DNA of 55,089 nt from the IMG/VR virus record IMGVR_UViG_3300009078_000004, positions 1-55,089 of that record. One strand, written 5' to 3'. Shown here in pieces: positions 13,758 through 17,925 of this stretch; position 1 is the stretch's first letter; each line of letters begins with the position of its first letter. Under the pieces are notes generated by a model. That model worked only from the letters and a program-made list of their open reading frames with translations. It did no database searches and was not told the DNA's origin. The position numbers were made by a program, and so were the translations under genes. This DNA is from a virus. Lineage: Duplodnaviria; Caudoviricetes.

Positions 13758-14572
13758 CCCAGCCCATCGAACCCCCACCGCTGCCGCCGGAGGACTGGAC
13801 AGCGGAAGAGGCCAGCGCTGCGGCCCTGTACCTGACGCTGGTCGCCGCGTGGTTGACGGCGGTCACCGCCGCGACGTTCCCCGCCGCAGGGATCATCAAC
13901 CCGTTCGGGATCTTGTCCGCCACGTCGCTGTGGACGCAGACGGTAACGAACTGGATCCGGCAGGCCGTACGCCCTGCGTTGCTCGCCCCGTACACGTTCC
14001 TGTTCGGCCCGGAACGTGCCACAGTGCTGTTCGATCAGCGCCCGTTCGTCGACGAGTACATCCGCACCGTCACGAACCTGCTGTCGCGTGTGCCCGACGA
14101 GACATTCCGCAGGGTTCAGGCGATCGTGCAGACGGCTTCGACGGAGGGTACGTCGATCCCCGACACCGCCGAGCAGATCAGGGAGACGCTCCTGGACGCT
14201 GGCGCGCCGTACTGGACGAACCGGGCCGAGACGATCGCCCGGACAGAGCTGCTACGCGCGCACAGGGGCGGGGCGTGGGACTCGTACGTCACGTACGGGG
14301 CGGAGAACGGTTTGCGGATGCGTAAGACGTGGATCGACTCCGACGATGCGCGGGTCAGGCCGGCGCACGTTGACACCGACGAGCAGACAGTTCCGATCAT
14401 GGAACCGTTCATGGTCGGCGTTGACGGCGGACCGCGGTTCCCTGCCATGTACCCCGGCGATCCGATCCTCCCCCCGAACCTGAGCATCAACTGCCGCTGC
14501 GACGTCCTGTACACGACCTACGACGAGCCGTTGACTGACCTGTCCGACCGGCGTTTCCGGAGCGCGCTATGA
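13754..14572 (+). CDS. MuF/SPP1 gp7-like minor head protein
   Basis: RAETIARTE, KTW...DARVRPAH, YPGDP, INCRC. Confidence 0.9.
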   Translation: MTQPIEPPPLPPEDWTAEEASAAALYLTLVAAWLTAVTAATFPAAGIINPFGILSATSLWTQTVTNWIRQAVRPALLAPYTFLFGPERATVLFDQRPFVDEYIRTVTNLLSRVPDETFRRVQAIVQTASTEGTSIPDTAEQIRETLLDAGAPYWTNRAETIARTELLRAHRGGAWDSYVTYGAENGLRMRKTWIDSDDARVRPAHVDTDEQTVPIMEPFMVGVDGGPRFPAMYPGDPILPPNLSINCRCDVLYTTYDEPLTDLSDRRFRSAL

Positions 14573-17500
14573 CCCTGCACGAGTTCCACCTGCCCGGTAA
14601 GCACGACCAGTCAAGCCACGGAAGCGGCGGCCGTCGCCGGAGCGGCGCGCCCAAAGATGCTGGCAGCCCGCCTTCATCCCACGGGAAGGCACGCAAGGGC
14701 ACACCACAGCGCATGTCCGCAGGCGATTTCGAGCGCGAGATAGCAAGCGACCGGCGGCTATACCGGGGCGTTGGTGTTCCAGCCGCAGCCGACTCGACCC
14801 GCAGCGGCGAGCTTGGCGGAGGCGACTTCGGCCCTGGCATCTACGTCGACCCGCGTATTTCTGTGGCGCAGAACTACGCGGGCCGCGGGGGCGAAGGCGT
14901 CGTTATGCGCATGGCACTCAAGCCTGGAACCGACGTGAAGGAGATACCGGCGAAGGTACGCCGCCGTGGGTCGGCTGCCATCGATGCGTGGGCCGAAGAG
15001 GGCAGGTACGACGTGATCAGCGCACCGCCCTACGTCATCGTCCGTAATCCTGACGTCCTGATTGCCGACGATCGCAATTACACCCCGCGCGAGTCTGTGA
15101 TTCTCGACTACTTGGCGCAGGGGTATGACATGCCAGAGGGTTACGAGGATGAGATAGCGGCGCTGCGGCGGGACCTGAGGATAGACATCCCGAGTTCGGG
15201 GCAGACTGCGTCACTGACCGCATTCCACCTCACCGGGCAGCACGACCAGTCGACGCACGGCCACGACGGACCACCGGGCAGCATCACGGGGAAGCTGAAG
15301 TCGGGCGGGACGGTCAGCCTCGGTGCTGGTGAAACGCTCGCGAAGTCGGATGTGGTGCAGCAGCGCGGCGGCGGCGGAGCACTGCTCGCCGCAGTCGACA
15401 GCAGCGACGGTGCACGGCGTGTGCGTCTCGGCGTGATCGGCGACGAGTCCGGGGTGTTGAAGTGGCGCGCGTCGAACAAGGGCGGCACGGCGAACCTCAC
15501 GCCCGCGCAGACGCGGGCGCTCGCGGACGGGCTCACCGACAGCTCGCGTAAGGCACGGCAGCAGCACGCCGAAGCCGACGCCGTCATCGAAGTATTGGAA
15601 GACACAGGCTGGGATCCCGACAACCCCGACCTTGACTCCGAACAGCGTGACCTGCTCGATCGGCACGACACACTCACGTCGGGGCTGGTCGGCAATCAGC
15701 AGACGATCAGCACGCCGTGGGGTGACGTCGTCTACGGAACCCGGATCACCGATGGCGGACCTACGGTGGCGCTCGCTGTCGTGTCCGACGACGCGGACGC
15801 CGACTGGACGATCGACGACGCGGTAGCAGACGGCACCGCGCTCGATCTGACCCTGGCGCAGGTACGTGCACTGGCGTCGAAGCTACGTTCTAGCGCGGGA
15901 AGCGGGCAGACTGCTGCTGTGGACACGTTTCAGGGCGACATCCCCGACCAGCTCGCCGACTACTGGCTGCGGGGTAAGGGTGCGGCGCGGGTGCGTTGGT
16001 GTACCCGCGGGTCGTTCCGGCGTGCGCGCCGGCTGCTGCGCGGGAAGGTTCCTGCGCACATGCTTGATGGGACGGTGGCGAACCTGTACCACCGTGCGTG
16101 CGGACGCTGGCCAGGACGTCGCGGCAATGAGGCGGCACTCGCCGCTGATCCGGCGATGCTCCCACCTGCGGATGTAAACGAAACCCCGATCGGCGATACA
16201 TCCGATGCGGGGAATGAAGGTGTGGGATACAACCGCACAGACTGGTTCGGCCCGCTCGCCCCGATCGACATCGCGACCGGTGACCGGCGCAAGTTCGCCG
16301 ACGACGCCCTGTCGACCCGGCAGCTTCCGTTGCCGTTCCGCTGGCAGGAGAAGGCGGCGCAGGGGCATGATGGCGCGGTTGTGGTGGGTTCGCTGACGGG
16401 GTATGAGATCGCCGAGGACGGCACGATCATGGGGCGTGGGTACTTTCTCGACCCGGAGATCATCCCCGACGTCCGCAAAGCCATGCACCTCGTAGAACAC
16501 GGCGTCATCGGCCCATCGGTGGACCTTGAACCGAACATGGACGTGACATGGGTTGACGAGCAGGGCAATGCGTTCGACACGGAACAGTGCCAACTGGACG
16601 GCACCTGCCCCGACAAACCCGAAGCTTTGATCACCCGCGCGACGATTGCCGGCGCGACCCTCGTCCCTATCACCGCGTTCGCTGAGGCTCGCGCGCCGAA
16701 GATGACCCGTCATGGCGAGTTCTGCCTCAACCCGTTGCACCCCGGTCCGTGCGCGTCTGGCGGTTCCGGCGGTGGGGGCGGCGGTGGGGGCGCGGCGAAG
16801 GACGCGAAGGCAGACGCGGAGAAGGTCGCGGCTGATGGTGCGCAGCCTTCCGCACCCGCGCAGGCACCGGGCCGCGGTGTTCTCGACGCGCTGATCCGTG
16901 AGAAGTTCCTCGACTCGCCGCAGGACGCCAACGACGACCAGACGCCGGAGCAGCGCGCAGCCGAGCAGCAGCGGGCGCAGGTCCAGGCGCAGACTGAGCA
17001 GCGGCGTGCACGCCGGGCGGAGGTCCGGGCGAAGGCTGCGGCGGCGCGGGAGCGGTACGGGCCGCGGTCGAAGTGGCCGAAGCGGGTACAGGCCGGTATC
17101 GAACGCGACGAAGCACGCCTGTCCCAGACCGCATCGGTAGACGGGCATGAGGACTGCGCTCTGAATGAGTTCTGCCGAGCACCGCTGCATCCTGGCCCGT
17201 GCAAGGGCTGGAAGGGCACCGGCGGCAAGTCGTCGTCTTCGACGTCTGCGCCCGCGCCGAAGGCAGCGCCGAAGCCGCGTGCCTCCCGCGCGAAGGCTGC
17301 GCCGCGTAGCGTACCGCCGAAGCGGGTCACGCCGAGTGCCGAGATTGGTACACCGTCGCCGACGTCGAAGGTGACGAAGGCGCTGAAGCCGGCGCAGATG
17401 GAAACGGACTGGGCTGCGCACAACGACACTCTGTCGAAGGCGCAGAAGTCGGCGGTGCACGACTACACGACATCCGACTACTTCCAGATCAACAACGCGT

Positions 17501-17925
17501 TGAAGGCAGTAGACGCGAAGCCGACCCGTGAGCAGAAGGCACTGATCGCGAAAGCCGAGATGATCCAATCGGCGATGGCCCCAGCACCCAAGGGCACGAA
17601 GGTGTTCCGCGGCACGAACACCGCCAGCGTCGGCCTGCCCGCTAAACCGACCCTGGCTGAGATGAAAGCACTCGTCGGTAAAGACCTCGTAAACGACGCC
17701 TTCACCAGCACATCAGTCAGCGCCGACGAGATCTTCGCCGGGAACCTGGAGTTTGAAATCGACATGCCGGAGGGCACCCCCTCGCTGTGGCTCAACGGCA
17801 ACTCCCGACTTCCCGACGAACACGAAGTGCTCCTCGCCGCGGGTGCGAAGATGAGAGTCGTTGGCGTGAATGAAAGCCCGCCAGGTTCGGGTAACTACCA
17901 GGTCAAGACAAGGATTGTGGCATGA
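14569..17925 (+). CDS. Multidomain capsid maturation protease polyprotein with N-terminal ART-like and C-terminal VIP2-type ADP-ribosyltransferase domains
   Basis: LYRG..FGPGIY..VAQNYA; YW..GKGAARVRW..G.WPG; TGDRRKF..LPLPFRWQ..GHDGAVVVG..GPSVD..IAGATLV..AF; YT..Y..IN..L, VFRG, FTSTS, DEHEVLL. Confidence 0.8.
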   Translation: MTLHEFHLPGKHDQSSHGSGGRRRSGAPKDAGSPPSSHGKARKGTPQRMSAGDFEREIASDRRLYRGVGVPAAADSTRSGELGGGDFGPGIYVDPRISVAQNYAGRGGEGVVMRMALKPGTDVKEIPAKVRRRGSAAIDAWAEEGRYDVISAPPYVIVRNPDVLIADDRNYTPRESVILDYLAQGYDMPEGYEDEIAALRRDLRIDIPSSGQTASLTAFHLTGQHDQSTHGHDGPPGSITGKLKSGGTVSLGAGETLAKSDVVQQRGGGGALLAAVDSSDGARRVRLGVIGDESGVLKWRASNKGGTANLTPAQTRALADGLTDSSRKARQQHAEADAVIEVLEDTGWDPDNPDLDSEQRDLLDRHDTLTSGLVGNQQTISTPWGDVVYGTRITDGGPTVALAVVSDDADADWTIDDAVADGTALDLTLAQVRALASKLRSSAGSGQTAAVDTFQGDIPDQLADYWLRGKGAARVRWCTRGSFRRARRLLRGKVPAHMLDGTVANLYHRACGRWPGRRGNEAALAADPAMLPPADVNETPIGDTSDAGNEGVGYNRTDWFGPLAPIDIATGDRRKFADDALSTRQLPLPFRWQEKAAQGHDGAVVVGSLTGYEIAEDGTIMGRGYFLDPEIIPDVRKAMHLVEHGVIGPSVDLEPNMDVTWVDEQGNAFDTEQCQLDGTCPDKPEALITRATIAGATLVPITAFAEARAPKMTRHGEFCLNPLHPGPCASGGSGGGGGGGGAAKDAKADAEKVAADGAQPSAPAQAPGRGVLDALIREKFLDSPQDANDDQTPEQRAAEQQRAQVQAQTEQRRARRAEVRAKAAAARERYGPRSKWPKRVQAGIERDEARLSQTASVDGHEDCALNEFCRAPLHPGPCKGWKGTGGKSSSSTSAPAPKAAPKPRASRAKAAPRSVPPKRVTPSAEIGTPSPTSKVTKALKPAQMETDWAAHNDTLSKAQKSAVHDYTTSDYFQINNALKAVDAKPTREQKALIAKAEMIQSAMAPAPKGTKVFRGTNTASVGLPAKPTLAEMKALVGKDLVNDAFTSTSVSADEIFAGNLEFEIDMPEGTPSLWLNGNSRLPDEHEVLLAAGAKMRVVGVNESPPGSGNYQVKTRIVA

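Follow-up and report, generated by a model that had tools for sequence, protein, structure and literature searches.

The open reading frame (ORF) P0001 of the virus record IMGVR_UViG_3300009078_000004 (IMG/VR; 55,089 nucleotides, the whole of which was analysed and is called the window here) appears to encode a head-assembly polyprotein, in which one half of a putative capsid maturation protease is joined to two domains of the ADP-ribosyltransferase (ART) fold. The record is complete, with direct terminal repeats and 65.7% G+C, and its source is a tailed virus that resembles actinophages. P0001 spans positions 14569-17925 on the + strand and encodes 1118 amino acids (aa); it is open from its ATG, which overlaps the stop of the MuF ORF upstream, and its N-terminus MTLHEFHLPGKHDQ agrees with the N-termini of its homologues. 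The reading that we consider rather probable, by analogy with known systems, is a functional chain in which this polyprotein would be cut in the prohead, kept in the capsid, injected with the DNA and used to modify components of the next host. The features on which the argument bears are located as follows.

14569..17925, + strand: polyprotein ORF P0001, 1118 aa
14701..15201, + strand: domain A, aa 45-211, modelled ART fold with invariant R66, Y92, Y103, R114, D148 and D167
15202..15213, + strand: junction motif 1, Q212-T-A-S215
15907..15918, + strand: junction motif 2, Q447-T-A-A450
16231..16704, + strand: P1, aa 555-712, assemblin/T4 gp21-like serine protease domain, with His600 at 16366-16368 and Ser650 at 16516-16518
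17125..17136, + strand: junction motif 3, Q853-T-A-S856
17404..17922, + strand: VIP2/C3-type ART, aa 946-1118 (PF03496; PDB alignments)
17922..19352, + strand: downstream ORF P0025, 476 aa, made of a leader, a Cys-rich module, d3 and P2 (aa about 256-476)
11940..11951, + strand: Q-V-A-A at residue 33 of the portal protein, candidate protease site (six-frame scan)
22979..22990, + strand: QVAA of the capsid protein, within N-Q-V-A-A-A (aa 218-223), directly before the conserved GWCAPS core

A preliminary description of this DNA had already seen P0001 as beads on a string, and this view is borne out. The short motifs that it listed lie exactly where it had placed them: LYRG (R66), GPGIY (Y92) and AQNYA (Y103) at about 14750-14880, GHDGA (H600, nt 16366), GPSVD (S650, nt 16516), VFRG (17602), FTSTS (17701) and EHE (17818). 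The other beads, namely a domain of about 200 aa that it called unknown, a YW domain and a basic helical segment, are likewise all present, as domain B (aa 216-446), the YW domain (aa 451-530) and the segment called L1 below.

The nature of P1 is indicated by its homologues. Genes that carry the label capsid maturation protease are matched by residues 545-708 in 494 phage records, and the shorter relatives (365-460 aa) consist of P1 followed by a second conserved domain, P2, which corresponds here to the C-terminal half of P0025. The model of a minimal homologue, P0085, was built on an alignment of 34 sequences, with a predicted local distance difference test (pLDDT) value of 84.9 and a predicted template-modelling score (pTM) of 0.54. 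Residues 1-136 of this model align with the varicella-zoster virus protease (Z 9.8, 113 residues, root-mean-square deviation (rmsd) 3.1) as well as with T4 gp21 (Z 9.6, 119 residues, rmsd 2.9), and the fold search lists nothing but herpesvirus proteases and T4 gp21 in its top 27 rows, with Z values from 6.7 to 9.8. One His and one Ser (H600 and S650 in P0001) are invariant in alignments of 34 and 39 sequences and, judging from their spacing, would coincide with the catalytic pair of these proteases. On the model of its homologue, P1 is an assemblin-like protease-fold domain with an intact catalytic pair.

The second domain, P2, contains an invariant His of its own and a nearly invariant Ser, and a PHROG family labels it head maturation protease. 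The ESM Atlas gave a lead from it to clusters with Peptidase_S80/S77 (score 0.93, 143 shared features). On this lead and the database labels, P2 is possibly protease-like; profile searches against the PDB sequences returned nothing meaningful for P1-P2 or for P2 alone. The idea that P2 originated as a diverged copy of P1 was dropped, because hhalign gave this relation a probability of 1.3%. In most relatives P1 and P2 lie in one protein, and the comparison of these sequences indicates that the ancestral protease unit is the two-domain P1-P2, the gene having been split in the P0001 lineage, with P2 in the next ORF. The maturation protease announced for this ORF in the preliminary description is thus recovered in part: an assemblin-like P1 with its invariant His and Ser is there, but it is only one half of the unit, the other half being in P0025.

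A four-residue motif, Q-[TV]-A-[AS], connects this protease unit with its candidate substrates. The QTA[AS] form occurs three times in P0001 (aa 212, 447 and 853) and twice in P0025 (aa 28 and 81), that is five copies, whereas 20,000 composition-preserving shuffles gave 0.10 on average and never as many as five; the six frames of the whole window contain 12 copies. The QVA[AS] form is found at four further places, at aa 252 (the P2 junction) and aa 436 of P0025, at residue 33 of the portal protein and at residue 219 of the capsid protein. The last two places, the portal N-terminus and the boundary of the capsid core, are of the kind at which the maturation protease commonly trims head proteins. 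In the capsid protein of the window, strong conservation with that of the Actinoplanes phage phiAsp2 begins at the GWCAPS block, right after QVAA.

In relatives of P0001 the motif sites coincide, though not everywhere, with the points where modules are gained, lost or exchanged. The N-termini of P0003, P0005, P0007 and P0011, which are devoid of domain A, align exactly after junction motif 1. Junction motif 2 precedes the YW domain in 12 of the 12 proteins P0002-P0013, in P0015-P0018 and possibly in P0019, with none in P0014, and junction motif 3 is the point of insertion of other modules in P0005, P0012 and P0013. The flanks of the motif vary from module to module while the motif itself stays constant.

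More distant relatives show a related pattern with another first residue. The scan of viral contigs with a single protein found no close relative; with an alignment as query it found 362 related loci, of which 80 were kept. The linker of 34 minimal P1-P2 proteins contains [LMF]-x-A-[SA], with Ala in 34/34 and Ser in 29/34, and its pLDDT is below 50 in the P0085 model. Before GWCAPS, 29 of the 32 related capsid ORFs read L-x-A-[AS] and one reads H-I-A-A. The two remaining capsid ORFs, those of L004 and L005, are off this pattern: L004 reads N-Q-T-A-A-A, and the polyproteins of both use QTAA. Among portal proteins, 31 of the 47 distinct ORFs whose N-terminus lies within the locus match a loose L/I/V-x-A-[AS]-A-type pattern at the aligned place, most other portal N-termini read V-x-A-A-A by eye, and Q is found only in L004 (QTAA). 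In locus L075, ALTAAA and PLTAAA stand on the two sides of a 2H/Acb1-like domain, and the capsid site of the same virus reads SLTAAA. The Q-type is rare at such distances, with three copies in the 50,811 residues of 70 distinct P1/P2 ORFs, two of the three in L004; Q-type motifs occur only where P1 is at least 58% identical to that of P0001.

Since the motif lies in unstructured linkers as well as at the trimming points of head proteins, and since its first residue changes in step among them, it is read as the cleavage site of the maturation protease. We infer from these comparisons that Q-[TV]-A-[AS] is the recognition site, and the shared, co-varying motif supports a putative proteolytic maturation of the head proteins by P1. 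The scissile bond is assumed to lie after Ala, by analogy with assemblin, whose cleavage consensus is Ala-Ser. In pseudorabies virus, the assemblin form present in vivo has a C-terminal Ala once it has released itself from the scaffold (PMC4498786; what is said here of this paper and of PMC5512222, PMC5576092, PMC7302621 and PMC9503650 refers to parts of them). A further possibility, somewhat short of probable, is that the motif acts as a portable address for capsid loading and release: domains placed between two motifs would be carried in and cut free by an assemblin-like protease, whose specificity would have been re-tuned in this lineage, from Leu to Gln two positions ahead of the Ala, together with all substrates.

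It could be argued instead that P0001 is a virion-internal or ejection polyvalent protein that is kept whole, the motif being a linker or docking element and P1 acting on the capsid protein only. Some polyvalent proteins are indeed transferred full-length (PMC5512222), the boundary between P1 and L1 is devoid of the motif, and the pre-ejectosome protein 9k3a_B keeps its ART-like domain within a 1717-residue chain. This explanation is nevertheless unlikely, as the motif is shared by the portal N-terminus, the boundary of the capsid core and the low-confidence linker of the minimal proteins, it co-varies across unrelated proteins, and homologue N-termini start exactly after it.

Several observations weigh against the cleavage of P0001 by its own P1 half. 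The fold model of P1 is that of the homologue P0085, whose P1 is about 40% identical to the one in P0001, and P1 is recognised by neither Pfam nor NCBIfam, with no match to the S77, S78 or S80 profiles. P2 is the more widespread domain, with matches in 855 phage records versus 494 for P1, and is labelled capsid maturation protease in Gordonia phage Jambalaya, so that P2 may be the main or the sole active protease; P0001 also lacks the C-terminal tail that follows P2 in the minimal proteins. As to the motif, the test for exact sharing within one locus gave only 10 observed cases versus 3.9 expected, in a crude comparison where the site was taken from a wrong ORF for L054 and L071. The boundary from P1 to L1 is left without Q[TV]A[AS], and one QTAS lies inside the MuF domain, where it is likely due to chance, which means that the four residues are insufficient by themselves. 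The Q-type lineages are probably one clade; the switch from L to Q would therefore be a single evolutionary event, yet one that is seen at several unrelated classes of sites.

The cargo that would be processed in this way is variable. Whole P0001 found 23 relatives, the close ones differing by whole modules. As already mentioned, domain A is absent from P0003, P0005, P0007 and P0011, which begin directly at the second HLxGxHDQ motif; in P0002, an unrelated module of about 245 aa takes its place. The basic helical linker L1 is missing in P0007, P0008 and P0010, where the loss spans the segment between two HPGPC repeats, and it is relocated to the downstream ORF type in P0020. There is no ART in P0005, P0011, P0012 and P0013, which continue into the modules of P0025 and end in P2. 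At the other extreme, the slot of phiAsp2 that is syntenic with P0001 encodes no more than a plain protein of 480 aa. Within the 80 related loci, MuF precedes P1 in nearly all and P1 and P2 usually share one ORF, a split being seen in few (L007, L017 and L019). Pfam analysis of 35 long ORFs chosen from these loci revealed 2H phosphoesterase/Acb1-like, Rho_N/HeH, DUF6582 and RMF-like domains on the P1 ORF, as well as PF03496 in three ORFs. None of these three carries P1; one is a separate giant ORF (L006) and the two others are MuF ORFs (L014 and L015). The expectation, formulated in advance, that related phages would display variable cargo around a constant protease is thus supported, with domain A absent or replaced, 2H and Rho_N/HeH domains present elsewhere and the ART replaced by P2.

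The 2H/Acb1-like phosphoesterase domain of L075 (IMG/VR locus, ORF at 6044-8209) occupies aa 165-276, in front of P1. It is a candidate head-delivered enzyme degrading anti-CBASS-type nucleotide signals.

The C-terminal bead is one of the two ART-fold domains of P0001. Residues 952-1102 match the Pfam family ADPrib_exo_Tox (PF03496) with 69.3 bits, for a cut-off of 23.4, and the domain also matches PHROG ART and Alt-like families. R1014, S1047-T1048-S1049 and E1084-H-E1086 align to the equivalent motifs of Lmo0066 and VIP2 (PDB sequences), and the R, STS and ExE motifs are kept in 9/9 proteins combining P1 and ART. These sequence features identify the bead as a regular R-S-E ART of the VIP2/C3/Alt kind, in agreement with the initial assignment of an R-S-E enzyme at this end. 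The Glu-x-Glu form of ARTs is associated with arginine targets, and the E-x-E motif suggests such a target here. The 24 relatives of this ART subfamily (614-1957 aa) include eight with P1, six with MuF and eight with two ARTs in tandem.

The assignment of domain A relies on its fold. Pfam has no family for it at E<=10 (aa 45-215), so that a match to its ART-PolyVal model is missing, and no PHROG match covers this part of P0001. The AlphaFold (AF2) model built on the homologue alignment has a mean pLDDT of 95.5. A Foldseek search of the PDB gave weak E-values, from 0.002 to 0.04, the first row being gp27 of cyanophage A4, a capsid-internal protein, and the remaining rows listed being named members of the ART superfamily (cholix, exotoxin A, RES toxins, MbcT, ParT and PARPs). 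An independent fold search placed gp27 first as well (Z 8.1, 115 residues, rmsd 3.3, 19% identity), followed by ParT (7.8) and cholix (7.6), and its top 35 rows are all ART-superfamily proteins, with Z values from 5.0 to 8.1. Among predicted viral structures (BFVD), 22 matches were obtained at E<=1e-3, including proteins named ART-PolyVal-like, PolyVal ADP-ribosyltransferase and PARP catalytic domain, as well as one protein of a Microbacterium phage that bears the label 'capsid maturation protease and MuF-like fusion protein'. The profile search against PDB sequences gave weak matches to an ADP-ribosylating toxin (E 0.001) and then to PARP1 (E 0.2-0.3). According to these models, domain A has the ART fold as it occurs in polyvalent proteins of phages, with ART-PolyVal, cholix and ParT nearest.

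An exhaustive profile-free search found 29 homologues of domain A at E<=0.001, in proteins that contain MuF, portal, PI3/PI4-kinase-like, DUF3626, zeta-toxin or R-S-E ART domains besides. R66, G67, Y92, Y103, R114, D148 and D167 are invariant among 19 aligned sequences. R66 (YRG) and Y92 (GxGIY) fall in strands of the model, in keeping with the His or Arg of strand 1 and the Tyr of strand 2 of ARTs, and D148 lies at the start of a strand. The conserved set of domain A, as aligned, is thus R-Y-(D), versus H-Y-D or H-Y-E. The ART-PolyVal clade has a His in strand 1 (PMC5512222), where domain A has Arg, and the likeness between them is structural only.

Another point against the proposed chain, in which both ARTs would be active, is that domain A has no conserved Glu at the canonical strand 5, the residue there being Q, V, K, R or H in the 19 sequences; it is therefore possibly no transferase. 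The C-terminal ART would then be the sole enzyme and domain A a pseudoenzyme, an NAD+/nucleotide-binding module or an NAD-degrading one, as the absence of any Pfam ART match at E<=10 and the presence among its fold neighbours of the NAD-degrading RES and MbcT toxins and of the pseudo-PARPs TASOR and PARP13 could suggest. This alternative deserves attention but is somewhat unlikely, because the invariance of R66, Y92, Y103, R114, D148 and D167 in 19 diverse sequences suggests a working active site, and an H-Y-D configuration, to which D148 at its strand start can be compared, has been described for ARTs of polyvalent proteins (PMC5512222). The N-terminal ART of the preliminary description is therefore retained as a fold, given the model and the fold searches, but it comes without the canonical catalytic Glu and without a Pfam match.

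In the proposed mechanism, the chassis of P0001 would be the P1 half of the two-domain maturation protease, which in relatives is a single plain protein of about 380-480 aa. The modules loaded on P1 would be an N-terminal domain belonging to the ART-PolyVal kind (R66/Y92/D148), domain B, the YW domain, the basic helical linker and the C-terminal R-S-E ART. By analogy with assemblin, the maturation protease would cut after the Ala of Q-[TV]-A-[AS]. In the prohead, it would trim the portal N-terminus and remove about 220 N-terminal residues from the capsid protein, leaving about 323, which is a usual size for an HK97-fold capsid protein. P0001 itself would be cut to four pieces: aa 1-214 (leader and ART-fold domain A), 215-449 (domain B), 450-855 (YW domain, P1 and basic helix) and 856-1118 (linker and ART). 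These folded pieces would be too large to exit the shell, would remain with the DNA and would enter the next host, where the injected ARTs would use NAD+ on host or defence components. Both retention in the capsid and entry into the host are plausible by analogy with T4 Alt and the polyvalent-protein model (PMC5512222, PMC9503650).

The capsid ORF starts with some 218 residues (22325-22990) that are Ala-rich and helical-looking, with poor conservation relative to phiAsp2 up to about residue 182. This N-terminal region is probably a delta or scaffold-like domain, removed at N-Q-V-A-A-A.

Protease and scaffold fragments usually leave proheads, and the ARTs might accordingly be cut off and lost from the capsid, or act late in the producing cell, as assembly-phase or host-shutdown enzymes. 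T4 offers a precedent, since its ModA and ModB are not injected (PMC5512222). Such a late role is considered quite unlikely in view of the covalent link to a prohead component, the position of the gene between the MuF and capsid genes, and the fact that MuF carriers, too, bear ARTs of this subfamily (6 of the 24 relatives; L014 and L015), all of which fit head delivery. Folded pieces of 23-29 kDa are moreover within the size range of retained internal proteins, which counts against their loss.

The position in the genome also bears on the question. The head module reads terminase with an intein, portal, MuF, P0001, P0025, four leftward ORFs and the major capsid protein; its nearest named phage by the capsid protein is phiAsp2, with 48% identity and an identical gene order. 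The P1 gene stands between portal/MuF and the capsid gene, in synteny with phiAsp2 and with most of the 80 related loci. The slot between MuF and capsid anticipated by the preliminary description is right as regards the head module, but P0001 is not immediately followed by the capsid gene (22325-23959), as the next ORF (17922-19352) carries P2. MuF is a separate ORF upstream of P0001, with its own stop, and is not in one polypeptide with a toxin, as it would be in a MuF polymorphic toxin; P0001 does combine, as polyvalent proteins do, several domains (two of ART fold, domain B and the YW domain) in one head-module polypeptide.

ART toxins on MuF carriers have been described for temperate phages (Jamet et al. 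2017, PMC5576092), and P0001 could in principle be a MuF-type polymorphic toxin serving in bacterial competition, with an immunity gene. This is very improbable: besides the separate MuF ORF, the gene after the ART is the P2 ORF rather than a small immunity gene, and no integrase or repressor family was found by PHROGs among the 31 further ORFs of at least 150 aa. The latter result weakly favours a lytic virus and disfavours the toxin-immunity explanation.

Head-packaged ARTs on MuF, portal or peptidase carriers are, in outline, already in print (PMC5512222, PMC9503650, PMC7302621). Polyvalent proteins were described by Iyer, Burroughs, Anand, de Souza and Aravind in 2017, who listed ARTs as their commonest modifying domain and predicted packaging, processing by a built-in peptidase and injection; the usual enzyme is a zincin-like MPTase, and an assemblin-like peptidase is found in some, always C-terminal and probably for processing (PMC5512222). 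P0001 resembles them in having several effector domains per polypeptide, encoded among the head genes. It differs from those described in PMC5512222 by its internal protease domain, half of a split unit, and by a junction motif common to portal and capsid. Nudix domains fused to a capsid-processing serine peptidase and ARTs fused to MuF were reported by Iyer et al. in 2022 (PMC9503650), and Jacobs-Sera et al. in 2020 reported MuF-VIP2 fusions in Microbacterium phages of clusters EH and EJ, as well as MuF-protease fusions in Microbacterium phages (PMC7302621). An ART on a prohead protease, the junction motif and the portal/capsid co-variation were not found in the literature searched, papers taken in part included; the supplementary domain-architecture files of Iyer et al. 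may list such architectures. What is new here is the candidate cleavage code and the ART-fold family, the overall theme being that of polyvalent proteins and MuF toxins.

The product of gene 5 of the Microbacterium phage FireCastle is comparable in that it belongs to the same ART family (33% identity), with the ART C-terminal on a head-module protein predicted to be in the virion. In contrast to P0001, its carrier is Phage_min_cap2/MuF, with one ART rather than two and no P1 or other protease domain detected. Since FireCastle gp5 is devoid of P1 and the PF03496 ARTs of the related loci are off the P1 ORF, the fusion of P1 and ART is, by sequence, confined to one narrow clade of nine among the sequences searched. 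FireCastle gene 5 (L001) nevertheless bears the product name 'capsid maturation protease and VIP2-like ADP-ribosyltransferase toxin', although only Phage_min_cap2 and ART domains are found in it. Product names for such genes vary more generally: capsid maturation protease, MuF-like minor capsid, portal protein or VIP2-like toxin.

T4 head proteins are cleaved by the prohead protease gp21, and the T4 cleavage site is of the type cut after Glu, versus the Ala-[Ala/Ser] type inferred for P0001. T4 is similar in that its maturation protease cuts proteins packaged in the head, an ART among them, and these are injected, steps that are conjectural for P0001; it differs in that the cargo is targeted by a short N-terminal sequence instead of being covalently joined to the protease. 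Alt is the T4 ART that is packaged in the head and injected (PMC5512222). Herpesvirus pUL26 likewise contains a protease of the same fold, made as a fusion that releases itself by cutting after Ala (PMC4498786), but its fusion partner is a scaffold protein and not a set of enzymatic effectors. The plain P1-P2 proteases of actinophages (phiAsp2 Pas7; P0085 and P0092) occupy the same slot after portal and MuF and have an Ala-[Ser/Ala] linker motif; unlike P0001, they are single polypeptides without cargo and with the L-type motif. Literature searches on the processing of phiAsp2 virion proteins yielded nothing of use. The gp27 protein of cyanopodophage A4 (PDB 9k3a chain B; PMC12002296), the best structural neighbour of domain A, was solved inside the capsid; it belongs to a podovirus ejection complex with no link to a protease.

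The similarity with gp27 involves about residues 944-1606 of 9k3a chain B. The term 'ADP-ribosyl' does not occur in the main text of PMC12002296, and the ART-like domain of gp27 may thus have gone unremarked.

Head-packaged effectors are a known, mostly predicted, phage strategy, and their loading and release are known in detail for few model phages. The present locus offers what looks, from sequence comparison, like a defined release code, a four-residue motif found at the cargo junctions and the protease linker as well as in portal and capsid, subject to a lineage-wide Leu-to-Gln switch and giving exact predictions of fragment boundaries. The carrier, half a maturation protease bearing ARTs, is not described in the literature searched, and domain A represents a family of ART fold for which Pfam has no model, found repeatedly on MuF, portal and protease carriers. 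Should the motif be such a portable address, this would be a natural, swappable polyprotein system for the injection of effectors, here two mechanistically different NAD+-using enzymes, and the co-evolution of a viral protease with its complete set of substrates (portal, capsid, own linker and cargo) would be readable from sequence. If confirmed, the motif could help to recognise processed virion proteins when the several hundred sequenced actinophages are annotated, and the capsids of laboratory phages could be loaded with chosen proteins by means of it.

The remaining modules of P0001 and the neighbouring head genes are listed below.

14587..14622, + strand: HLPGKHDQSSHG motif of the N-terminal leader, repeated at aa 220-231
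15214..15906, + strand: second HLxGxHDQ motif and domain B, aa 216-446
15919..16158, + strand: YW domain, aa 451-530, DYWLRGKGAARVRW...GRWPG (phrog_6439)
16705..17124, + strand: L1, aa 713-852, with a CLNPLHPGPC motif, a Gly run and a basic helical segment
17137..17403, + strand: L2, aa 857-945, with a CRAPLHPGPCKGWKG motif and a Ser/Pro/Lys-rich linker
8118-10916: large terminase with intein, 932 aa (LAGLIDADG and Hom_end matches)
11844-13757, + strand: portal protein ORF
13727..14572, + strand: MuF-like minor head protein, 281 aa (PF04233, 47 bits; phrog_2468)
22325..23959, + strand: major capsid protein, 544 aa (phrog_777)

Domain B is 43-93% conserved in P0002-P0011; Pfam gave only sub-threshold noise for it at E<=10 and the ESM Atlas no usable match. 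The YW domain recurs beside P1 or P2 in related loci. The same Pfam threshold, applied to the seven separate segments, retrieved nothing for domain A, the YW domain, P1, L1, d3 or P2, and NCBIfam nothing for P0001 or P0025. P0025 has beads as well: an acidic leader of 27 aa, a Cys-rich module of 53 aa with seven Cys (aa 28-80), d3 (aa 81-250) and P2, with Q[TV]A[AS] between them.

Two other repeated motifs were noticed. HLxGxHDQxxHG occurs twice in P0001, at the N-terminus (14587-14622) and after junction motif 1 (15226-15261). In relatives it is found directly after MuF or portal domains, flanking domain A (P0022, P0024 and P0037; L013, L021, L047 and L048), and a related motif, F-[DN]-P-x-Q-x-R-x-x-x-G-[KR]-[WF], replaces it in others; it may be a docking or targeting signal. 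The second motif, C-x-x-P-L-H-P-G-P-C(-K-G-W-K), is present at 16723-16752, after P1, and at 17173-17217, after junction motif 3. Related loci contain it 13 times, for the most part in giant ORFs (1300-1800 aa) beside MuF, portal or protease genes.

Around the head module, the homing-endonuclease matches of the terminase (LAGLIDADG and Hom_end) are situated after its N-terminal part and before Terminase_6N/6C, which indicates the intein. The four leftward ORFs (19590-22140, - strand) that separate the protease unit from the capsid gene have no PHROG match, and pas8-pas13 occupy the same place in phiAsp2. Further upstream, a 474-aa ORF at 1700-3124 has both a DNA methyltransferase and a ParB-like nuclease/partition domain (phrog_498 and phrog_8071).

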